The position numbers were made by a program, and so were the translations under genes. A DNA stretch of 64,000 nucleotides from a virus (lineage: Duplodnaviria > Caudoviricetes). The notes under the pieces are model-generated. The model ran no database searches. It was not told the DNA's origin and saw only the letters and a list, made by a program, of their open reading frames with translations. Below are positions 3,066-40,598 of this stretch, piece by piece; within the stretch, counting starts at the first letter, position 1; the number at the start of each line of letters is the position of its first letter. Where the stretch lies: positions 3,449 to 67,448 of the IMG/VR virus record IMGVR_UViG_3300028788_000011. The stretch is one strand, 5' to 3'.

Positions 3066-3586
3066 GACGTGATTATGCCTCGTTTTTGGTTAATTGAATG
3101 AACAAATTCCTGTAAATCTGGACTCCAGGCACCGTAACGTGCGACTTCGCTATGGAACGCCGTGACATCGTGCTCGCGGAGCCCGTAGACGGGGACGCCA
3201 TCGCGGTCGAACTTTGGGTCATCGAACTCGTTGACTTCTTGCTGGATATGACAGAGTTCATGCCAGCACAATGCCTCGCGATCGATCTCGCTGGCGGCAT
3301 TCCACCAGGGTTCGTCAATGACCATCAGGAAGTCGGGGAGCGCGCCGAAGTGCGCTGTCAGCAGTTGCTCGAAGAGATCGCCCAGCTTACCCTGGACTTT
3401 TGGCAGATGCACGGACCCTGCAATTGAGCGGCCCTGATGCCGCTTTTGCTTCCCGCACATCAGGTACTCGATTACGATGTCGTTGTCGACAATGTGTTTG
3501 TGCGTGGGGTCGCGTATTAGCCGCGCGCACACAGCCGCCGGTCCGGTATTTGGATCCGGCGTGCTGTATGGGCCGAAATCATCCAC
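3062..3586 (-). CDS. Putative phage metallopeptidase
   Basis: HELCH (HExxH) motif plus HDVTAF...VARYGAW tail characteristic of the phage metallopeptidase family. Confidence 0.8.
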   Translation of the reverse strand: MDDFGPYSTPDPNTGPAAVCARLIRDPTHKHIVDNDIVIEYLMCGKQKRHQGRSIAGSVHLPKVQGKLGDLFEQLLTAHFGALPDFLMVIDEPWWNAASEIDREALCWHELCHIQQEVNEFDDPKFDRDGVPVYGLREHDVTAFHSEVARYGAWSPDLQEFVHSINQKRGIITS

Positions 3587-19955: not shown

Positions 19956-20363
19956 TCAAAACGGCGCATCCGACTTAGCTGCTGGTGCCTGTGCTGGCGC
20001 AGCGGTATGCGCTGTTTGCGTTGCATCAGCAGGCTTCCCGCCAAGCATCTGCATGTTGTCCGCCATGATCTCGGTAATCGAATACTCGATTTCGTTTTTG
20101 ATGTACTTGCGCGTCTCAAGCCGTCCCTCGACGTATATCTGTCCACCTTTCTTCAGGTATTGCCCAGCAATTTCAGCAAGTTTCCCTTTGAAGATGATGC
20201 GATGCCATTCTGTCTTGGACTTCTTCTCACCAGACCCCTTATCCTTCCACGACTCAGTTGTCGCCACGCTGGCAACTGTAATGGAATCGCCATTCGGCAT
20301 TGTCTTCATATCGGGATCGCGACCGAGTGTACCGATTACCTGCATTTTATTGAGTGATGCCAT
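19956..20363 (-). CDS. ssb: Single-stranded DNA-binding protein
   Basis: LNKMQVIGTLGRDP, TEWHRI, YLKKGGQIYVEGRL, C-terminal DAPF. Confidence 0.95.
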   Translation of the reverse strand: MASLNKMQVIGTLGRDPDMKTMPNGDSITVASVATTESWKDKGSGEKKSKTEWHRIIFKGKLAEIAGQYLKKGGQIYVEGRLETRKYIKNEIEYSITEIMADNMQMLGGKPADATQTAHTAAPAQAPAAKSDAPF

Positions 20364-22864
20364 TATGCCCTCTGTTTGCGTGAATTAAAAGTGTGCCAAG
20401 CCCAACCCGATGAATATCCTTTTTGCGCAGCGTATGCCTGAAGCTGCTCAAGTGTCCGCGCCTGTGCGATCTCGCGCCTGCGCGAGATCTGCGCCAGCTT
20501 GACCATGTCGTCGGTGATCTGCCCAAGCGTGCCGTCGACCACTTCTGCCTCTTTGCGGCCAGCGACAGGCATCTCGTGGCCGCATGCGGGACAGCATGGT
20601 TCTGGTTCGAAGACGTAGTAGCAGTTAGGGCACTGCGACAACTTGATTTCGTTGGTTGCTTGTTTCTTTTTTCCCTTCTTGCGGCCTTCGAGTGTCCATT
20701 CGCGGTCGGTGCAGGGAAGTCCGTGCTTTGGCACGAATTTTCCTTCTAGGATAGTGCCGACATTGCCAACGTGATCCAGCGCGAACGCTGGGCTATCAGT
20801 TCCATCTGGTCGCATAATGCGCCCGATCATCTGCAGAAACATCGTCAGCGTTCCTACGTGCCTGAGCATGATGCAGCATTTGAGTGCTGGCACGTCAAAT
20901 CCCTCCGACACAAGGTCGACCACACAAATACCCTGTATCACTCCAGATGTGATCTCACGCACAACCTGATCGCGTTCAGCCTCCTTCATGCGCGGCGCGC
21001 CGACAAGCAACTTGAATTTGTATCCGGCCTGGCAGAACTGTTCAACGACGTGTTCAGCGTGATCTATGCGTGCGCAGAACACGACAGCGCGAACTCCAGG
21101 GCAGATCGCAGTATAGTGCTCAACAGCGTCACCTGTAATGACACGCTTATCCACTAATGCCGCAACCTCGTCGACATTGAGTTCACCGTCTTTGTTCGGT
21201 TTTAGCTTGGAGAAGTCGGGAATGACCTTGCCGGCGTACACAACGGGATTGATCAGCATTCCCCGCTCGATCAGCAACGACACCGGTGGACCAGTCACCA
21301 ATGATTTGAAGATACCGCCATGATCGACGCCCATACCAATACCGTCACCGCGCGCCGGCGTGGCGGTCACGCCCAGCGTGTTTTTTGCCGCCAACAGCGC
21401 AAAGACCTTCCCCCACTTATTGTTTTTTGTGACATGGTGGGCTTCATCGAACACGACCAGGTCGAATTTGAATTTACCTGGCGTTTTCTTGAGCCGGATC
21501 AGCAACGTATCTACGCTCGCGACCTGAATCTTATGGTGCGGATTCGGCGTGAAGTGCGGACTGATCATGCCGTGCTGAATGCCGAGGTTGTGCAGCGCGC
21601 GGCTGGCCTGCATCAGCAATTCGTTGCGGTGAACAATGATGATTGTTGAGTTGCCCTTGGCGGATGCGTTGGCGGCGATGTAGCTGAACGTGTAGGTGTT
21701 GTGCGTGACCGTGAAATCGCCGAGCATGAAAAGGTGATCACCATCGATCTCGAAGCCGTAGTAGTCGCCTTCACCGATTGGTTCAACATTGATGCCAGTG
21801 ACAAGAACACTTTTCTTTTGCTGGCGTGGCGATGCAATACGGCGTGCTACTCTACACGGAATTATATCGACATCGCCATTGATATTTAAACGATAATAAG
21901 TACCAGAAAATCCAGTGCTTTTTATGCCTTTTTCACATTGCATAACATAGGATGATAAACCAAGCGATCGCGCCAAATATGCAACATCATCGGCAAGACG
22001 TCGCTCTTTGAAAATCAAATCATAGGTACCATTCGAAAGATATCCATCGGTATCAACGATGCCAGCCAATATTTCAAGTCTTACTTCGCGAGAATTACAT
22101 TTGTAATCGTCTGGAACATGTTTGTTTCCACGCAAATGATAAAAATCAAGCGCATTAGCCATTCTGTTTGGATGATTACCACGGCCACGGCCATCTTCTG
22201 GATAAGAAACTATTCGATAAGTTGGACAAGATTTTGTAAACTCAGTTTCCACACGCATTTTGTGTGAAATTGCATATTCGCAAATTGCGTCAACAACTTC
22301 AAAATCAGCAGTGCTGATATGTGGAAATTTATTTGTCCCATCTCCAAGCCAAAGGCCGAGCATATATGGTGGTAAATGCTCATGAACATCACGTGGTTGA
22401 AATTCAATTCCGGTACGCCATCCTTTGGCGACATGCTTGAATGTTTTTGAAGATTTTAGATAATCAAGAACTGAGATGTTGCAAACTTCATCGCCGCCAT
22501 ACATCAACCCATCACCAGCAGTTACCGGGCTTCCACCACTGATTTTTAGACTTAGAATATGGCTTTCATTGACGATGTATGGATCACCTTTTACTGGTGT
22601 CACACGGTAAAGATTCTCGCGGCCACGCGCAAGCGATTGAACGGTACGCGCCTTGCTATCTGGACCAATGAGTAGGTCGCCAACAACAATATTCTCGACT
22701 GGTTTGACCGTTCCATCGTATAGCAAAACAGGCGTCCCACGCCCCAAGCACTTCCCTGCCCCGGTCGGCATCTGAAACAATACCGGTTGCAACTTCGACT
22801 TGAACGCGGCACGAATATCTGTCACTGCCACATCCTGATAATCCCGCAACACAATTGCTGCCAT
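20363..22864 (-). CDS. SF2 DEAH-box helicase containing an intein
   Basis: LRDYQ, PTGAGK|T, DEAHH, TATP, QMIGRIMR, C-terminal CPNC...CPAC. Confidence 0.92.
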   Translation of the reverse strand: MAAIVLRDYQDVAVTDIRAAFKSKLQPVLFQMPTGAGKCLGRGTPVLLYDGTVKPVENIVVGDLLIGPDSKARTVQSLARGRENLYRVTPVKGDPYIVNESHILSLKISGGSPVTAGDGLMYGGDEVCNISVLDYLKSSKTFKHVAKGWRTGIEFQPRDVHEHLPPYMLGLWLGDGTNKFPHISTADFEVVDAICEYAISHKMRVETEFTKSCPTYRIVSYPEDGRGRGNHPNRMANALDFYHLRGNKHVPDDYKCNSREVRLEILAGIVDTDGYLSNGTYDLIFKERRLADDVAYLARSLGLSSYVMQCEKGIKSTGFSGTYYRLNINGDVDIIPCRVARRIASPRQQKKSVLVTGINVEPIGEGDYYGFEIDGDHLFMLGDFTVTHNTYTFSYIAANASAKGNSTIIIVHRNELLMQASRALHNLGIQHGMISPHFTPNPHHKIQVASVDTLLIRLKKTPGKFKFDLVVFDEAHHVTKNNKWGKVFALLAAKNTLGVTATPARGDGIGMGVDHGGIFKSLVTGPPVSLLIERGMLINPVVYAGKVIPDFSKLKPNKDGELNVDEVAALVDKRVITGDAVEHYTAICPGVRAVVFCARIDHAEHVVEQFCQAGYKFKLLVGAPRMKEAERDQVVREITSGVIQGICVVDLVSEGFDVPALKCCIMLRHVGTLTMFLQMIGRIMRPDGTDSPAFALDHVGNVGTILEGKFVPKHGLPCTDREWTLEGRKKGKKKQATNEIKLSQCPNCYYVFEPEPCCPACGHEMPVAGRKEAEVVDGTLGQITDDMVKLAQISRRREIAQARTLEQLQAYAAQKGYSSGWAWHTFNSRKQRA
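21698..22750 (-). mobile_element. 351-aa intein with LAGLIDADG homing endonuclease
   Basis: Starts CLGRGT, ends VTHN followed by Thr; LGLWLGDG and LAGIVDTDG blocks; markedly more AT-rich than its flanks. Confidence 0.93.
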
Positions 22865-22915
22865 AATATCTCCCTGCGCGGCACAAAATTCTATTCCGCA
22901 CAAAACAATTTCAGT

Positions 22916-30944: not shown

Positions 30945-31601
30945 TCACATCCCCGCCACGGCGCCGCGAACCGTTTCACCCATGTGATATTCGATCATCG
31001 AAAGTCTTTTCAGTCCCTTTGGTGACCCGAAAATAAGCTTCAGGCCGGCGAGAGGACGCCATTGTTGCCATGGGTTCGGTTCTGGCACCTTCGTAACAGG
31101 ATCTCCAAACCATTTTGCCCATGCCGCCACGCAGCGCGTCGTGAATGTATTCGGTATGTTTTTTGCAAACCAGTCGACCCCCTGTTGAAAGCAAAAGTTT
31201 GGGCTCTCGAATAGGTACATCTGGACGACTTCATATCCGCGCATAACCAATGCGGCCGCGATGAGTGCACCGATCGGGCATCCGCGCGAATGGCATGCGA
31301 TTTTGATCTTGTCGCCAAGCCGAAGCATTGGTACGATCTTGTACACGAACGCCGGCACGTTTTGATAGAAACCAGAATGGACGGCACCAACACCATTCAA
31401 ATCTGTCGTGAGGATGTCGATGTCGTTGATCCAGCCATCGATGTTTTCAGTACCGGCTGGAACGATCCAGAACGCGTCTGGAACGCGCTTGGTAGCAACA
31501 GTATCCTCGTTGATGACGATAACGTTGTCGAATACGCCTTCGGTGACTGGTGCGTAGACATCATGGGTCGCCATCTGAGCGGCGAACACGATCTCGCTCA
31601 T
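30945..31601 (-). CDS. Class 3 lipase-like alpha/beta hydrolase
   Basis: VPAGTEN, VHSGFY, CHSRG nucleophile elbow, GDPVTKVP, C-terminal His; start reassigned to ATG 31601. Confidence 0.8.
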   Translation of the reverse strand: MSEIVFAAQMATHDVYAPVTEGVFDNVIVINEDTVATKRVPDAFWIVPAGTENIDGWINDIDILTTDLNGVGAVHSGFYQNVPAFVYKIVPMLRLGDKIKIACHSRGCPIGALIAAALVMRGYEVVQMYLFESPNFCFQQGVDWFAKNIPNTFTTRCVAAWAKWFGDPVTKVPEPNPWQQWRPLAGLKLIFGSPKGLKRLSMIEYHMGETVRGAVAGM

Positions 31602-31915
31602 TACGGCACCGTCACGCCGACACAGGCCGCATTCACGGCGTTCTGCTCGATGCGGCCGACGCGAAGCTTCTCGATCGCGCACAGCGGTCCGCCAGAGCAT
31701 GGCGTTGCCGTCAAGATAACGCAGGCTTCGCCATAAGCAGCAGCACACTTGGCGCCAGCTGGGTCGAGCGTTCCAGCGATCTTTGTGGCTTCTGCGGTAT
31801 CGGCCTTACAACCATCACCAATTACCTTGTCGATGGTCGTGTTCGCAGCGTTGATCGTTTGGCATCCAGCCAGCGCGATGGCAAGTAATGATGCAATGAG
31901 AAGTGTTTTTTTCAT
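31601..31915 (-). CDS. Cys-rich lipoprotein
   Basis: Lipobox LAGC after a hydrophobic signal peptide. Confidence 0.8.
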   Translation of the reverse strand: MKKTLLIASLLAIALAGCQTINAANTTIDKVIGDGCKADTAEATKIAGTLDPAGAKCAAAYGEACVILTATPCSGGPLCAIEKLRVGRIEQNAVNAACVGVTVP

Positions 31916-32031: not shown

Positions 32032-32454
32032 TTATTTGTCGCACCGCCAGATATTGAAATGCGGCTTCTCATTGCCGTTGTTGAACAGATGTCCATTGAT
32101 ATCTACGTTAGGGTGCTTTCCGTATTCCTCCTGCAGATCTGGCTGCAAGTCATTGATGGTTCCCGCGAACCAGTTCGACATAGGGCCGTTCAGGCCATCT
32201 GTCCAGGACCTGATCTCTTTCAAGGCTCGCGCTGTTGCGGAGTCCGCGTTAGGTGCAGTGAAACGACCGCCGTAGATAACTTTATCGCTTGACAGCACCA
32301 CGGCACACCACGTTAATAGCGGCTTTGGTGCCACATACGGATGGCTTCTGTATGCTTCGGCGAAGTTGTCAACCATCACCTCGGTCTCAAGCGGTGAGGC
32401 ATGAACAGACATCACCAAGGACATGACCATGATCATCAAAAATGTCCTCTTCAT
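32032..32454 (-). CDS. Secreted hypothetical protein
   Basis: MKRTFLMIMVMSLVMSVHA signal peptide; GGAGG RBS. Confidence 0.7.
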   Translation of the reverse strand: MKRTFLMIMVMSLVMSVHASPLETEVMVDNFAEAYRSHPYVAPKPLLTWCAVVLSSDKVIYGGRFTAPNADSATARALKEIRSWTDGLNGPMSNWFAGTINDLQPDLQEEYGKHPNVDINGHLFNNGNEKPHFNIWRCDK

Positions 32455-32627
32455 GGCGCAGTCCTCCCAGAATTGATATCGTCCATAACCTGCGCTTCGG
32501 TCTGGTTTTCCATCGACAGTGCGAAATCGAATTGATTCATGAACCATTCGTTCGGCGGCTGTCCATATTTAGCCTGATATGCCGCGACGATCCGCGTCAT
32601 CGCTTGTTTGACTTCTTCATCCGTCAA
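32451..32627 (-). CDS. 58-aa hypothetical protein MTDEEVKQAMTRIVAAYQAKYG... (not in ORF track)
   Basis: AGGGAAGG-N7-TTG; overlaps both neighbours by 4 nt. Confidence 0.55.
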   Translation of the reverse strand: MTDEEVKQAMTRIVAAYQAKYGQPPNEWFMNQFDFALSMENQTEAQVMDDINSGRTAP

Positions 32628-34643: not shown

Positions 34644-35333
34644 TCAATAACTGAATTGGACCCCGATTGATGCAGCATAACCAAGCGCACCGGAATAAAT
34701 TGGGCGATAGTAGGTTTGTCCACTGGAACCGTTTGGATCTGGTTGCGTGTTGGTCGATTTAGTCGGGATGATTTTTAGAATTGCCGACCAGTTTTTTGCG
34801 AAAGTATAACCGACAGCAGCACCAAATCCTGGCGTGTTCTTCACTGCGTGATCGATATGGCTAACAAGCGGACCGACCTGATATGTCGGCGGCGGTCCAT
34901 ACCAATTAAAATTCGTATTTTCATAGTTTGGCCGAGTCACATACAATCCACCTTCAGCGAACCAGCTTCCCCATGTCTTGCGTGCCATCAGATAGCCGAA
35001 TGGCATAGTTCCTTGGCCTTGCATGTGACTGATTGGTCCACAACCTACTGAGCAATCGTCGACGTTATGAATCATCGCATCTGACGTGCAGCGGCCGGCA
35101 TTGCCGACACCTAAACCAATTTGCCAACCATCGTAAAACTGATCGGTATAAATCCCAATGGCACCTGACACAGCGCGACAACGAATCGTGTTCGGCATGT
35201 CGCGCTGATACCAATTTCCGACAGGTGCCGGCTGATATTGCGTCAGATCTAAATCAAGTTTCAACTCGACCGCATTGGCATTTAGCCAAATAGACGAGGC
35301 CATTACGACCAATGCGGCGAGTATTTTTTTCAT
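34644..35333 (-). CDS. Outer-membrane beta-barrel protein (Ail/Lom/PagC-like)
   Basis: Signal peptide ending ANA, alternating amphipathic strands, C-terminal IGVQFSY aromatic beta-signal. Confidence 0.7.
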   Translation of the reverse strand: MKKILAALVVMASSIWLNANAVELKLDLDLTQYQPAPVGNWYQRDMPNTIRCRAVSGAIGIYTDQFYDGWQIGLGVGNAGRCTSDAMIHNVDDCSVGCGPISHMQGQGTMPFGYLMARKTWGSWFAEGGLYVTRPNYENTNFNWYGPPPTYQVGPLVSHIDHAVKNTPGFGAAVGYTFAKNWSAILKIIPTKSTNTQPDPNGSSGQTYYRPIYSGALGYAASIGVQFSY

Positions 35334-35380
35334 TTGCGGCTTTCAGGTTTAAAGAGTTTTGAATTCAACCATGTCAAGAA

Positions 35381-36514
35381 TTATTTTATCCTTTCAACGG
35401 TAACTAAACCGCTGCCCGCCGTGCCAGATGTTGCACTCGTGGATGACGAGGCAGCACCACCAGTACCACCACCAATAGATGAATTGCCCGTGATACAGGA
35501 GGTTCCTGTACATCCACCAGTACCGCCCAAAATTCCGGTATTCCCGCTAGCGAAACCGGCGGTGCTGCCGCCACTTCCCCCGCCGGTCCCAGGGGATACG
35601 GATGGCTCGTTTCCTTGTGAACCCCCGCCCGTGATAGCCCGCCACGGTTCGAACAGAGAATCAAACCCGAAGGATATCGCGTTTGTCGCAGAGCCAGAAG
35701 CAGCCCCCGTGCGGTAAGCTCCGTCCGTGCTTGCCGCTGACGCAAAGTGGAGTCCATTGACGCCGGCACTTCCGCCAGGACAAGCACTCCCAACGCTGAC
35801 GCCGCCGACTCCGCCAGAACCGCCGCCTCCGCCACATCCGCCAGAACCGCTGGAACCGCCCGCGCCGCCGACTCCGCCTCCGCCGCCCGCGCCGTTTTGA
35901 GTAGTGCCGGCACCGCCCGCGCCGCTAGTTCCGTTTGGCCATCCGCCCGCGCCGCCTCCGCCCGAGATAATCCCGGATGCAGACCATGTGACATTGCCGC
36001 CCGCGCCGCCTGTTTGATTGTTGGAGCCACCTGACCCGACCCCGCCGGCACCTCCCGTAACGCTTATTGTTTTGCTACAAGTCCCCCCGCTGCCGCCAGT
36101 CGCTTGAATGGTAGTGAACCCTGACGCGGTGACGCTAGTAGTTCCCCCGGCATTTCCGTTCGCGCAAGTTGATCCTGTCGATTCAGCAATTCCAGCGCCA
36201 CCAGCGCCCACCGTGATTGTCAGAACCGTGCCGGAAATAAACGACTGATCAACCTCCGCGAATCCACCACCACCACCTCCAGACGAAGCACAAGGCGAAT
36301 TTAAGCACGCCGCGCCGGAACCGCCACCACCTTCGACAGATACTCGATAGGTTCCCGTTACGGGAATTGTATAAGTTGTTGATGTGGGAAAAAATATTGC
36401 CGGTTGTAGTGCAGACCCGCCGCCAGCGAATTGACTGAAATCGCTCGCGAAAGAGGTCGCATAAAAGCACAATAAAACTGCTGAAAGGATTGCCCGATTG
36501 ATGAAATTTCGCAT
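35381..36514 (-). CDS. Glycine-rich fibre-associated protein with Sec signal peptide
   Basis: Start reassigned to ATG 36514 (TAATG coupling): MRNFINRAILSAVLLCFYATSFA|SDFSQFAGGG; paralogue of 38101-39231. Confidence 0.8.
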   Translation of the reverse strand: MRNFINRAILSAVLLCFYATSFASDFSQFAGGGSALQPAIFFPTSTTYTIPVTGTYRVSVEGGGGSGAACLNSPCASSGGGGGGFAEVDQSFISGTVLTITVGAGGAGIAESTGSTCANGNAGGTTSVTASGFTTIQATGGSGGTCSKTISVTGGAGGVGSGGSNNQTGGAGGNVTWSASGIISGGGGAGGWPNGTSGAGGAGTTQNGAGGGGGVGGAGGSSGSGGCGGGGGSGGVGGVSVGSACPGGSAGVNGLHFASAASTDGAYRTGAASGSATNAISFGFDSLFEPWRAITGGGSQGNEPSVSPGTGGGSGGSTAGFASGNTGILGGTGGCTGTSCITGNSSIGGGTGGAASSSTSATSGTAGSGLVTVERIK

Positions 36515-38091
36515 TATTTTATTCTCCAGCCAGGTGTTGTCGTGTAATACATCAAGCAAAATGATGCATAATTTGTTGTCACTGTCATGTCTGCGGCGGA
36601 CCCCATAATATTTGAACCGTTGCGAGAAATGGTCAATGTGTTCGTGCTGAATGTTCCTGCTGCGTCTGAAACACATACTTGATTGTACTGACTTGGCGTG
36701 GGTGGCAATGTGATTGCGAACGCACCGCCACTGGTATCTGCAAAGATATTATCGCTATTAGCGGCGGTGTAAGTTGTCGTTTTTGTGATGTAATTATTTG
36801 CCCCACCTCCCGATCCATTTGCCGCCGCCGTCAAACGACCTTTTGCGTCTACCGTAATATTCGCTGATGTATAACTTCCTGGGGTGACGGCGGTATTCGC
36901 AAGCGTTGTCGCGGTAGACCCTGCACTTGTCGTTATATCTCCGGTAAATGCAGGTTCTTGAGAGGCTGCTAGAGACCCTGAAATATCGGAGAATGCAGGT
37001 TGTGATTTATGCGGAACGCCGCTGGTGCTGATTGAGTCAATCCAATTGCTTGCTGAACTCGTAATGCTTTCAATTCCTCCGAGTGTCGTTGCCGTTGGTG
37101 CGGGGATGATCGATGCTGCAATCAGCCCACTTCCATTAGTTTCAACAACGGTGTTGTTTCCAGTTGTGCCAACCGGAAGGCCTGCCGCCAATATATTTCC
37201 TGTTGCGCCATTCCATTGCGGGAGATATCCATTTGTAGACGACCCTGGCCCGGTAAACGTGCTGCCGCAGCTATTGGAAAGAACGCCCCCGGAAAGCGTC
37301 AGGCAACTCCCGACTGCAACCGCCGCCCCACTCCCAGGCGTAGCCGACCCACCCCAAAGCTGCGAAGCGGTAGGCGGCGTGCCGGAAAACAAAACCGCCG
37401 TCCTCGAATTCCCCGCTCCACGCCATTCTGCGTTCGCCAGATCGTAAATCAGCCAGATATCGCGCCCTGGCTGAATCACAAGCGTCGAACTTCCGTCGAT
37501 CGTTGTCCCGCTGCCAGCGGTCACGGTGTCGGTTGCGCTTGCATCCACGTTAGCGATATTGATCTGCGTCCCATTCGCCAATCCGGTTGCGCCCGCTGCC
37601 GGCAGCGTGTCGGTCATCGCCGTGCCGCCATTGCTGCGCCGTGTCTTTTTGAACAGGTCGGCGGTGCCGAAGGCGTAGTTGCTCTGCGTGACAGTCGATG
37701 GCGGCAATAGCGCTTCGATCTTGCCGGTACCGGGATTGCCGACCGATGCCCCGAGAGGAAAGCCAGCAATTGGGAATAAAGGCAAATGCGTCGACGCATT
37801 GATTCCGAGTAAATTTACCCAACTCGTGCCGTCGTATTCATCCAATGAATATGGAGTTCCGGCAGTGTTTAGCCAGAGATTACCGATTGATGGAGAGGCC
37901 GGTGCTGTCGCAGAATTGAATTGCCCAAAAATATTATTGATGTCGCTATAAGCAGCAGCAAAATTTGAGCGTATCGGGCCGGATGACAGATTTTCTTTGA
38001 AAGCTGGTTCAGAAGGGTTAACGCTTGACCCAACGGCTCCTGCAGTGATCGATGCGATCAGCAGAAAAATTGAAATAATGATTTTTTTCAA
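36514..38091 (-). CDS. Tail-fibre-like protein with Sec signal peptide
   Basis: MKKIIISIFLLIASITAGA|; fibre motifs TAVTPGSYTSANITVDAKGRLTAA and ADTSGGAFAITLP...GWRIK. Confidence 0.8.
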   Translation of the reverse strand: MKKIIISIFLLIASITAGAVGSSVNPSEPAFKENLSSGPIRSNFAAAYSDINNIFGQFNSATAPASPSIGNLWLNTAGTPYSLDEYDGTSWVNLLGINASTHLPLFPIAGFPLGASVGNPGTGKIEALLPPSTVTQSNYAFGTADLFKKTRRSNGGTAMTDTLPAAGATGLANGTQINIANVDASATDTVTAGSGTTIDGSSTLVIQPGRDIWLIYDLANAEWRGAGNSRTAVLFSGTPPTASQLWGGSATPGSGAAVAVGSCLTLSGGVLSNSCGSTFTGPGSSTNGYLPQWNGATGNILAAGLPVGTTGNNTVVETNGSGLIAASIIPAPTATTLGGIESITSSASNWIDSISTSGVPHKSQPAFSDISGSLAASQEPAFTGDITTSAGSTATTLANTAVTPGSYTSANITVDAKGRLTAAANGSGGGANNYITKTTTYTAANSDNIFADTSGGAFAITLPPTPSQYNQVCVSDAAGTFSTNTLTISRNGSNIMGSAADMTVTTNYASFCLMYYTTTPGWRIK

Positions 38092-38100
38092 GATGCCCCC

Positions 38101-39231
38101 TTACCCGATTCGTTCGATCGTAACAATGCCGTTGCCGCCGGCTCCGCTCTTGACGCCGTTTCCAGCCATGCCGCCGCCGCCAGCACCAAAGCCGCCCAGA
38201 CCTCCAACGCCACCGCCTCCCGAAATCCCACCGCCTCCCGAACCACCGCCGCCGCCGCCACATGTCCCGCCGCAAGCGCCAAAGTAACCAGTCCCACTGC
38301 CGCCCCCACCAGCACCAAGCCCTCCATTCGTTCCGAGGTTCGCTCCGCCGCTGCCGCCGCCGCCAGTGAATGAGCGCCACGGATCGAACAACGATTCAAA
38401 ACCCACACTAGCTATTGTTAAATTTTGAGCACTGAGCGTAACGGTACGGCTAATACCATCCGCGCCAACGGTGCTTGTGCTCGCACCGAATGACCCCAAA
38501 CGTGGGACGCCACCAAGACCAACAGCATTTGTAGCGTTCACCGACGCCCCTCCCGTACCCGCGCCGCCCGTTGCAGAACTCGCGCTAGTTGCGGTCGCCA
38601 TACCGCCAGCGAAACCGCCCACGCCGCCGCCGCCGCCGCTGGCTGAATATGTCGACGTTCCCGTGATTGATGTCAGCGCCGCGCCGCCCGCGCCACCCGT
38701 GCCCAAAGGCGTAGCCGCCGCGCCGCCGCCTGCCGCAGCTTGGGCTACGCCGGTACTTGTCGATGTGGCTTGAGCAGCCCCGCCATTGCCCCCGCTTTGG
38801 TTGTTCGAGCCGCCCGATGCAGTGCCTGCGCTGCCACCGTATACCTGAGTGCCAGAGACAATACTGGCGCCGCCACCGCCGCCGCCGGTTGCCGTTAACG
38901 ACAGCCCGGTTGCAGTCACCGTCGTGGATGTTCCGGCGTTGCCAATTACCGCAGTACCATTTGTCGCCGTAACCCCGGCGCCACCCACTCCAGGTGAAAT
39001 AGTGATAGCCGTACCAGATGGTAGGAAGACATCGATTTCAGAGAAGCCGCCGCCGCCACCACCCGCAGCGGCTTGCGCTGTCCCAGTGCTGGTATATGCC
39101 ATGCCACCAGCGCCGCCAGCGCCAAGCGCAGATATCCGATAAATACCAGCGATCACGATCGTGTATACGGTTGAAAACGGGAAGAAAATAGCAGGTTGCT
39201 GTGGACTCTGGCTGCCGAGTAAAATACTCAT
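38101..39231 (-). CDS. Glycine-rich tail-fibre-associated protein (no signal peptide)
   Basis: QPAIFFPFSTVYTI...GGGGG repeats...GIVTIERIG. Confidence 0.8.
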   Translation of the reverse strand: MSILLGSQSPQQPAIFFPFSTVYTIVIAGIYRISALGAGGAGGMAYTSTGTAQAAAGGGGGGFSEIDVFLPSGTAITISPGVGGAGVTATNGTAVIGNAGTSTTVTATGLSLTATGGGGGGASIVSGTQVYGGSAGTASGGSNNQSGGNGGAAQATSTSTGVAQAAAGGGAAATPLGTGGAGGAALTSITGTSTYSASGGGGGVGGFAGGMATATSASSATGGAGTGGASVNATNAVGLGGVPRLGSFGASTSTVGADGISRTVTLSAQNLTIASVGFESLFDPWRSFTGGGGSGGANLGTNGGLGAGGGGSGTGYFGACGGTCGGGGGGSGGGGISGGGGVGGLGGFGAGGGGMAGNGVKSGAGGNGIVTIERIG

Positions 39232-39233
39232 CG

Positions 39234-40598
39234 TTATTGCTCCATGGTGATGTTTACCAACTGGAAATCACCAGTATTTGTATCGGCGCCGTTGGCGGCG
39301 AGTCTGGTCAAAACGAAGTTTACCAAATCCTGTGATGCCAATGTCGATGCCGGTATCTCCATCACAGCAGCCAAATAATTTGACAAATTCCCTGCCGTCG
39401 CTGGAGCCGCGACAGATTCAACGGCATTGGTATATGCGACAGTCCCTAGCGGTCCATTTGCGAAGATCTGATACCCGAGTTGCAGGTAGAAATTTCCGGC
39501 ACCAACATCCCCAGTAAAATGCAGCCGCATTTTCAACGGCTTGGCGGGATTTAGCGTAGACAGGACTGGCATCGACCAAGACACAGCCATCGCATAGGCT
39601 TTGATAAACTGCGAAACAGAGGTATCACCGACCTGGCTTTTAAATGCAGGCGTGGTGCCATACCCCGACAAGATCGGGACAACGTACCGAAACGGTGTCG
39701 CGGCATCAGCATAGGCGCACGTCGCCAAGGCAGTCGTACCAGTCATTGGCGGCTGCGTAACCGCGTCTGCCAGCGCATAACGCACGTTCGAGCCATCGCA
39801 AAATACTGTGTCGGCAGCTCCCTGCGCAACGGGTACGCCGGTACCACCAAGCGCAATGGCAGTGACGGTCCACGGTCCGGTTGTGGCATTGACTACGACC
39901 CAGCGGCCAGGGGCGGCAGGGAATGTCAGTGTGACATTTGCCGTCAGCGCTCCCGTTACTTCGATGATCTTGTTGTTTGCCGTCAGAGCAGAAACATTGA
40001 CTACACCTCCAGTCGTGGCCGCTGTTGCCAGCCACGGCGATTGCGGATCGGCCCAACTGAAATCACCGGCAGCAGATGAATTTTTCTGTAGCATCTGATA
40101 CTGGGCCCCGCCGGGGAGAATGTACCCAGGTGTGATTGTCGAGATAACCCATGCCCGTGTGGCGCCGACAAGGCTGGGGTCGATCGTCACCGTCACCAGC
40201 GCCGTATTGGAAATTATCATCCCGAGATTGATGACGAGATCCAATGTAGTGCCGCTGGCGGCCACAGCCTTGATGGTATCAGGGTAATTTGCTATAGCGA
40301 ATAGGACCCCGCCAGATGTGAATACCCCCACCTCACGTACGGTGAAGCCGCCAACGGTCGGCGGGACACTCAACTGTGCCCACATCAAATTCGGATTTAA
40401 TGGGTCGACCGACAGCCCATTTATAGTAGTCGAGTAGACCTGATTAACCAGCGTCGTGCGCGTCGGATCCGGGGAAGCAATAGGACTGCCGCCGCCATCG
40501 CCGACGGACATGGTAGAGAGGACGATAGGCGTACCAGACATCAGCGCGGCTGCGTAGAGCGCCTCTCCGGCAACTGTCAAAACGGCAGAATAGGTCAT
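39234..40598 (-). CDS. Baseplate-attached tail fibre
   Basis: P2 gpH-like N-terminus (LTVAGEALYAAA...VGDGGG...VREVGVF...IANYP). Confidence 0.85.
   Translation of the reverse strand: MTYSAVLTVAGEALYAAALMSGTPIVLSTMSVGDGGGSPIASPDPTRTTLVNQVYSTTINGLSVDPLNPNLMWAQLSVPPTVGGFTVREVGVFTSGGVLFAIANYPDTIKAVAASGTTLDLVINLGMIISNTALVTVTIDPSLVGATRAWVISTITPGYILPGGAQYQMLQKNSSAAGDFSWADPQSPWLATAATTGGVVNVSALTANNKIIEVTGALTANVTLTFPAAPGRWVVVNATTGPWTVTAIALGGTGVPVAQGAADTVFCDGSNVRYALADAVTQPPMTGTTALATCAYADAATPFRYVVPILSGYGTTPAFKSQVGDTSVSQFIKAYAMAVSWSMPVLSTLNPAKPLKMRLHFTGDVGAGNFYLQLGYQIFANGPLGTVAYTNAVESVAAPATAGNLSNYLAAVMEIPASTLASQDLVNFVLTRLAANGADTNTGDFQLVNITMEQ

Follow-up and report, generated by a model that had tools for sequence, protein, structure and literature searches.

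Predicted export signals on a second fibre and its glycine-rich partner in the tail operon of an uncultured peat phage

The DNA analysed here (the window) is a stretch of 64,000 nucleotides (nt), positions 3,449 to 67,448 of IMG/VR record IMGVR_UViG_3300028788_000011, and is part of a single viral contig of 67,448 bases from an uncultured peat phage, near-identical copies of which are found in at least 18 peat or bog metagenome contigs. Its minus-strand late region (bases 30,900 to 60,800) encodes, in order, a tube initiator, a sheath initiator, a baseplate J-like protein, a gpI-like protein, a first tail fibre (fibre 1, 39234..40598), a glycine-rich protein (Gly-rich 1, 38101..39231), a second fibre (fibre 2, 36514..38091), a second glycine-rich protein (Gly-rich 2, 35381..36514), a protein of 229 amino acids (aa) (34644..35333), a membrane protein and an endolysin. 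An earlier note on this DNA had drawn attention to the five genes from fibre 1 to the 229-aa protein, all of which were found at these positions on the minus strand. The subject of this report is the pair formed by fibre 2 and Gly-rich 2, both of which carry predicted signal peptides. The gaps between the five genes are, in order, 2, 9, minus 1 and 47 nt, and a consensus scan for promoters and terminators between 33000 and 45500 gave no more sites than were found in shuffled sequences. A separate transcription unit for the fibre genes is therefore unsupported, and from the tight spacing and the scan together the five genes are read as part of the late operon.

Fibre 2 (525 aa) begins with a TTG at 38091, located 4 nt past a GGGGG Shine-Dalgarno-like run; it can start nowhere else, since no further start codon is met in frame for about 160 codons. 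Its first 19 residues (38035..38091, minus strand) have the n-h-c layout of a signal peptide: the n-region has K-K, the hydrophobic core is 12 residues long (Kyte-Doolittle 3.39 over 10 aa), and a signal peptidase I (SPase I) site is predicted after A-G-A. Gly-rich 2 (377 aa), whose ATG overlaps the stop codon of fibre 2 by one base, starts with a predicted signal peptide of 23 residues (36446-36514) that has R/R in its n-region and S-F-A as its site, with a hydrophobic core between them, and the 229-aa protein starts with basic residues, a hydrophobic core of about 12 residues and an A-x-A site. Signals were called by a heuristic based on hydrophobicity and the -3/-1 rule (positively charged n-region, 10-15 residues of hydrophobic core, and small residues at both -3 and -1), by which all three proteins have Sec/SPase I signal peptides. 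A simple signal filter run on 30 late-region proteins was passed only by these three and a lysis-region lipoprotein, and by none of 20 upstream virion proteins of the window; a fifth late-region signal was found, by reading the open reading frame (ORF), behind an internal start of ORF 32032-32547. The earlier note had assigned Sec signals to the second pair and none to the first, which agrees with the n-h-c layout and cleavage sites of fibre 2 and Gly-rich 2 and with the lack of a signal peptide in both fibre 1 and Gly-rich 1.

Signals are present in every full-length relative of fibre 2 (52-68% identity), and these relatives begin at ATG with the same signal layout. The signal is directly followed by a conserved N-module (aa 20 to ~105, 37777..38034, minus strand; alignment A2), common to signal-bearing fibres of phages with different tail architectures and found by tblastn at 39-57% identity in loci L011-L020, L023, L025 and L028-L030 (L numbers denote loci). 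Among 19 distinct N-module proteins, drawn from metagenome contigs, IMG/VR contigs and three bacterial genomes, 18 carry a signal whose A-x-A or A-x-G site lies one or two residues ahead of the conserved start; columns 1-22 of the alignment are barely conserved and the next 80 strongly so. Signals are likewise present in all the Gly-rich partners and in all seven relatives of the 229-aa protein. Both partners of a fibre/Gly-rich pair carry a signal in about nine loci in all, including the window, L001, L010, L011, L012, L013, L015 and L028, and neither partner carries one in two pairs, the first pair of the window and that of L021; no mixed pair was found among the pairs seen. In an independent lineage (L033) a signal-bearing Gly-rich protein (P0170) lies amid three further signal-bearing fibre-like genes. 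Since this form recurs in relatives whose signal sequences have diverged, the signals are credible beyond chance.

The Gly-rich family was gathered by an exhaustive profile search, as a word-indexed search missed known relatives (glycine words), and comprises 5853 representatives at E 0.001 or better. Its members usually start with a short segment of the type 'M-S-x-L-S-Q-F' and have no signal; among the top 157 only two have one, i.e. 98% are without. Gly-rich 2 and its orthologues have 23 additional residues ahead of this usual start, and the predicted signal is thus an add-on to the family start, much as the earlier note had described it (a signal prepended to a normal fibre-accessory N-terminus). 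In one IMG/VR contig (L011:9416-10719) the signal-bearing Gly-rich gene is spread over two overlapping frames by an apparent frameshift.

The hydrophobic N-termini might alternatively have nothing to do with export and represent membrane tethers, trimerisation or docking helices comparable to the N-terminal helices of gp24 from cyanophage Pam3, or simply mis-called starts. The TTG start of fibre 2 and the heuristic nature of the signal calls leave some room for this, and in one structural alignment (range 1-377) Gly-rich 2 followed the gp24 model with its N-terminal helix included. Fibre 2 has, however, no other start codon before about residue 160, and its ATG-initiated relatives share the layout. 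The segment is uniformly hydrophobic rather than amphipathic, with K/R before it and A-x-A after it, and it varies ahead of a conserved module, contrary to what a docking helix would show; nearly all members of the Gly-rich family do without it. We consider a non-export explanation very improbable, and fibre 2 and Gly-rich 2 are very likely exported from the cytoplasm, as far as this can be judged from sequence. The secretion proposed in the earlier note is in this respect sustained by n-h-c regions and A-x-A sites that directly precede a conserved mature N-terminus in 18 of 19 relatives.

Behind its signal, Gly-rich 2 consists of a tumour necrosis factor (TNF)-like and a polyglycine domain and matches PF21722 (Gly_rich_2) at 25.0 bits, above the cut-off of 24.3 (E 2.3e-5). 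Its AlphaFold2 (AF2) model has a predicted local distance difference test score (pLDDT) of 91 and a predicted template modelling score (pTM) of 0.87, and matches the Pam3 fibre gp24 (7YPX_A; Z 18.5, 30% identity over 150 aa in Foldseek) and the tail tip of mycobacteriophage Bxb1 (9D93_Qa; Z 15.0, root-mean-square deviation 3.2 Å over 203 residues, 30% identity), and more distantly the glycine-rich domain of ALK/LTK (Z 8 for ALK); the Foldseek E value for the model was 7e-7. The model shows no N-terminal helical bundle of the gp24 type, as only the signal helix (residues 2-23) and a helix of four residues precede the beta domain. Gly-rich 2 shares its fold with chains Qa and Qb of the Bxb1 tail tip (PDB 9D93), a virion component of a siphophage with a mycolate-walled host for which no export signal is known. 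A PF21722-type domain is also found fused to the C-terminus of proteins of 700-1030 aa. In view of these fusions and of the Pam3 gp24/Bxb1 fold, the Gly-rich proteins can be regarded as binding tips, and the model makes Gly-rich 2 the probable receptor-binding tip of fibre 2. A role of the Gly-rich proteins as chaperones was considered and rejected, the fold being that of the receptor-binding tip of gp24.

Beyond the N-module, fibre 2 has a mosaic shaft and a C-terminal domain (aa 450-525, 36517..36744, minus strand) related to the adaptor (XD) domains of CBA120 tailspikes. In a search of the A2 profile against PDB the last ~75 residues matched residues 100-174 of three 'Tailspike protein' entries (7RFV, 7RFO, 7REJ) at E 2e-6, and the domain also matches PHROG families 31104, 972 and 23412 and, among cultured phages, tail fibres of pelagiphages, cyanophages and Nitratiruptor phages. 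Domains of this CBA120/T4 gp10 type attach further fibres or spikes. In CBA120 they are near the N-terminus of cytoplasmic tailspikes, whereas in fibre 2 the domain ends a predicted-exported protein. Pfam gave no match for fibre 2, neither to the PF12571 attachment domain nor to S74, and NCBIfam gave none for any protein of the set. The mature part of fibre 2 has two close pairs of cysteines (263/275 and 473/512), and in 11 of 12 signal-bearing fibres the mature cysteine count is even, with the residues in close pairs, as expected for folding in the periplasm. On the simplest reading, fibre 2 and Gly-rich 2 would form a two-part fibre, consisting of a shaft with a docking domain and a separate tip that presumably binds to it.

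Fibre 1, a conventional tail fibre, carries the tail-collar N-terminal (baseplate-attachment) domain PF12571 (E 1.5e-41), falls into PHROG tail-fibre families (best E 1.6e-50) and has an N-terminus that is not hydrophobic. Gly-rich 1, the cytoplasmic paralogue of Gly-rich 2 in the same TNF-like and polyglycine fibre-tip family, aligns with the PF21722-type family from residue 1 and is without the 23-residue extension. The earlier note had called the region a duplicated pair. This is true of the Gly-rich proteins, paralogues that share 52% identity over 142 aa (E 3e-17), but not of the fibres, between which BLASTP detects no similarity (best E 1.4) and of which only the first has PF12571. The TAA stop of Gly-rich 1 is in frame with the TTG start of fibre 2, with three sense codons between them (38089-38103); a read-through would fuse Gly-rich 1 to fibre 2, and the in-frame arrangement is probably a coincidence.

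The signal-bearing cassette occupies several positions in the tail operons that carry it. In L010-13, L015, L028, L029 and the P0004 contig it lies between Baseplate_J and the gpI-like gene; L001, L016 and L030, with Pam3/E217-like tails, have it behind the tape-measure region, and in L018-20 and the window it comes behind a conventional fibre. Every carrier in which enough of the tail module is visible also has a conventional fibre gene, and for this reason the signal-bearing set looks like an extra. Across carriers the N-module is 45-55% identical, while their baseplate J proteins are just 22-31% identical or their baseplate proteins are of another type; compared in this way, fibre and tip move as a cassette between phages with different baseplates. 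Carriers include a Burkholderiaceae metagenome-assembled genome and, from a cultured strain, the Paraburkholderia sp. EB58 prophage (L029). The N-module is rare, being found in one of 301 sampled Burkholderiaceae genomes, which was already known as a carrier, and among 50,697 cultured phage records fibre 2 was matched by its C-terminal domain only, the N-module giving just a short generic fibre motif, and Gly-rich 2 and the 229-aa protein had no match at all.

Some other signal-bearing proteins were seen in the loci examined. A protein of 387 aa with a Phage Tail Collar domain (PF07484, E 1e-21; L023:6780-7943) directly precedes a signal-bearing fibre of 1044 aa. Two further signal-bearing fibre-like proteins (P0013 at L002:10001-11659, and L025:4978-8001) have parts that, by eye only, look like a beta-helix of the tailspike/depolymerase type, so that exported phage depolymerases may exist too.

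The 229-aa protein that follows Gly-rich 2 is an 8-stranded outer-membrane beta-barrel, which bears out the description of this gene in the earlier note as a signal-peptide beta-barrel. The strands of its AF2 model have pLDDT 85-95, and structural matches include NspA (Z 14.8), OmpW (14.2), OmpA (13.8), PagL (12.2) and OprF, with Foldseek matches to OmpA/Ail/OmpX (E 1e-6 to 1e-4) and ESM Atlas neighbours annotated as OMP_b-brl, Opacity and Ail_Lom. With its signal peptide, its C-terminal aromatic residue and its place among the tail-fibre genes of a late region the barrel resembles lambda Lom, as well as Ail, OmpX and NspA; lambda lom itself lies between J and stf. It differs from Lom in that it does not belong to PF06316 (no match; PF13505 reaches 20.7 bits, under the cut-off of 28.7) and in having long, cysteine-containing extracellular loops that are, unusually, more conserved than the strands. 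In an alignment of the barrel family (A3) the invariant residues, among them two Cys, four His and several Asp and Ser, are nearly all in these loops, which are modelled at pLDDT below 50. Such conservation suggests that the loops serve a conserved partner or an enzymatic site. PagL, an 8-stranded lipid A deacylase of the outer membrane, has a His/Ser/Glu catalytic site; the match to it (2ERV) is no better than those to non-enzymatic barrels, and the conserved His, Ser and Asp of the barrel family are in the loops of low pLDDT. A type V translocator would have 12 or 16 strands; the model and its best matches have eight.

The barrel family is tiny (seven clusters); its occurrences were all in fibre regions of phages, in five contexts and always at the distal end of the fibre genes. 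Besides the window, these are L024/L025, where the barrel is between two signal-bearing fibres, one of them with the N-module of fibre 2; L026/L027, where it is between signal-bearing fibre-like genes; L031, where it follows a fibre-like gene ahead of the lysis genes; and L032, where it follows signal-free fibres. In L031 the barrel relative (749-1471) has one in-frame stop after its signal-bearing first 54 codons, for which a pseudogene, a sequencing error or recoding could account. The 47-nt gap before the barrel gene of the window (35334-35380) has a perfect TTGACA (35377-35372) and, about 18 nt downstream, a weak TTTAAA, neither of them in the list from the consensus scan; the two could be a moron-type promoter.

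The earlier note had proposed, as one of two options, that the fibres are displayed through this barrel, which would then be a dedicated outer-membrane anchor or display device; infected or lysogenic cells would carry a phage-encoded system of surface fibres that serves as an adhesin, a decoy or a means of exclusion. The restriction of the barrel family to fibre regions, its conserved loops and the perfect TTGACA ahead of the gene are compatible with such a function, and the barrel adjoins signal-bearing fibres or fibre-like genes in three of its five contexts (the window, L025 and L026/27). On the other hand, BLASTP at 1e-4 found no relative of the barrel in the other signal-fibre loci (at least 12) except L024/L025, which goes against the co-occurrence in relatives that the earlier note had required. 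Because barrel relatives are missing from most signal-fibre loci and eight strands are too few to translocate a fibre, display through the barrel is not a general mechanism. Moreover, the L032 fibres next to a barrel are signal-free, the barrel-adjacent fibres differ in their N-termini and show no common docking part, and lambda lom demonstrates that such a barrel may lie among fibre genes for unrelated reasons. We therefore regard a dedicated anchoring device as improbable. A looser link between barrel and fibres survives, and the barrel may be a Lom-like outer-membrane protein that cooperates with the fibres but is not required by them. Two signal-bearing proteins of 234 and 263 aa (L018:14407-15111 and L020:14033-14824) are encoded ~3.5 kb downstream of signal-bearing fibres, in what may be phage or host flank; they are unrelated to the barrel of the window, their N-termini resemble those of small outer-membrane proteins of alphaproteobacteria, and they have no Pfam match at 0.01.

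What the exported pair might do can be stated less firmly than its export. We tentatively favour, at rather less than an even chance, that the exported two-part fibre is an accessory module that stands outside the cytoplasmic assembly line of the virion and binds host surface structures. Fibre 2 and Gly-rich 2 would be translated with the tail genes late in infection, given that the gaps ahead of them are 9 nt and minus 1 nt. Sec would then move both proteins over the inner membrane, SPase I would cleave them directly ahead of their conserved mature N-termini, and folding would be periplasmic, with disulfides that could form between the closely paired cysteines of the fibre. The product would be a shaft with a gp10/CBA120-type docking domain, carrying Gly-rich 2 as its TNF-like polyglycine receptor-binding tip. 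Its targets might be surface structures of the producing cell's own envelope, or it might bind such structures as free fibres after release at lysis; receptors would thereby be masked, re-adsorption prevented or superinfection excluded. Such a virion-independent role is favoured because the whole cassette, including the N-module, moves between unrelated tail architectures and because its products would be made in the wrong compartment for assembly.

Several points weigh against this role, or against the export on which it depends. The genes are situated inside tail operons, are translationally coupled and have the classic architecture of receptor-binding proteins, i.e. the look of a virion part, and a conserved N-terminus with a mosaic C-terminus is also a hallmark of virion fibres. 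There is no evident route across the outer membrane, most loci being without any barrel, and a free fibre that masks receptors would have no obvious need for export. The signals were called by a heuristic, and one N-module protein, in L021, has no signal and is at the position of a podovirus-like fibre. Finally, cysteine counts in the Gly-rich proteins do not separate the signal-bearing from the cytoplasmic members.

The main rival explanation, which the earlier note had also named in outline (addition to virions during lysis), is that fibre 2 and Gly-rich 2 are true virion fibres, exported for oxidative folding, that join finished particles when holin and endolysin merge the compartments and provide a second, disulfide-stabilised receptor-binding set. 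In every carrier the genes belong to a tail or baseplate operon, often between two baseplate genes and tightly coupled, and the conserved N-module with mosaic distal parts, the paired cysteines and a tip fold shared with the virion proteins Pam3 gp24 and Bxb1 tail tip would all fit. It is also established that T4 long fibres can be the last to join otherwise complete particles. Against this, a common docking site is hard to see because the N-module is conserved across such dissimilar baseplates; the PF12571 attachment domain is in fibre 1 and not in fibre 2, the cassette takes varying positions in the operon, and no tailed phage is known to assemble in this way, nor was one found in the literature. 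We consider this explanation possible but rather unlikely. The broader proposition, that part of the host-recognition apparatus of a tailed phage is built outside the cytoplasm by Sec export, periplasmic disulfide formation and joining to finished virions at lysis, is to be viewed as unlikely.

The closest architecture in print is that of the MAT fibres of Bdellovibrio bacteriovorus, which have a signal peptide, a conserved N-domain, a phage-fibre-like mosaic trimer and variable tips and are located on the cell surface (Caulton et al. 2024, PMC10769870). Fibre 2 is like them in layout, its signal being directly followed by a conserved N-terminal domain and then by a mosaic fibre. In contrast, MAT fibres are encoded by chromosomal genes of a predatory bacterium and the fibre 2 cassette is in phage tail operons; the N-module has ~85 aa compared to ~130 aa in MAT, the tip of fibre 2 is a separate Gly-rich protein, and there is no S74 domain. 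The solved MAT structures, which cover C-terminal parts only, were not matched in the search of the A2 profile against PDB.

Pam3 gp24-type domains (TNF-like and glycine-rich) recognise the host receptor, and gp38 of Salmonella phage S16 is a noted analogue (PMC9608196); the polyglycine-sandwich structure 6F45 of the S16/T2 gp38 adhesin was not among the matches listed for Gly-rich 2, so that the link to gp38 goes only through Pam3 gp24. Gly-rich 1 and Gly-rich 2 share this fold with gp24 (PDB 7YPX). In gp24 the N-terminus is a helical domain that docks the fibre to the baseplate; there is no signal, and the protein is made in the cytoplasm and occurs in virions. Gly-rich 2 instead begins with a signal and comes after a shaft that is a protein of its own. 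The Sf6 virion with OmpA (PDB 3NB3) was considered as a precedent and set aside, as later work is said to ascribe these proteins to co-purifying vesicles.

Virions of tailed phages are held to assemble in the cytoplasm, export signals on receptor-binding proteins are not expected, and the textbook picture of assembly has no periplasmic route. We found no description of signal-bearing tail fibres in tailed phages in the literature; signal peptides have been reported on genes of Porphyromonas phages, with no fibres named (Matrishin et al. 2023). The window adds cytoplasmic and predicted-exported paralogues side by side, a Gly-rich partner with a tip of the Pam3 gp24 type, the matching of compartments between partners, a recurring small barrel and a cultured carrier strain. 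It contains its own internal control, in that a cytoplasmic fibre and tip are adjacent to a predicted-exported fibre with a paralogous tip, the prepended signal being the only systematic difference of the tip. The observation made in the earlier note holds largely, and its interpretation is partly supported. If the exported set joins the virion, phage assembly would have a periplasmic branch; if it stays off the virion, free or envelope-bound receptor-binding modules would be a new class of late accessory function, serving in receptor masking, anti-readsorption or cell capture. Either outcome matters for attempts to predict host range from the genomes of phages and to engineer their fibres, and the prophage of Paraburkholderia sp. 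EB58 makes the question directly testable.

In the lysis region, downstream of the genes discussed above, 31601-31915 encodes a Cys-containing lipoprotein with a lipobox, and no spanin pair was recognised there. The idea that the exported proteins substitute for a missing spanin was rejected, since the mosaicism of the fibres is that of receptor-binding proteins and since other phages have them in baseplate modules, not in lysis modules. No integrase was found among ten non-structural ORFs of the window phage. One of its genes, for a helicase of 846 aa (20363-22903), contains an intein with Hint and LAGLIDADG homing-endonuclease domains between the helicase motifs.

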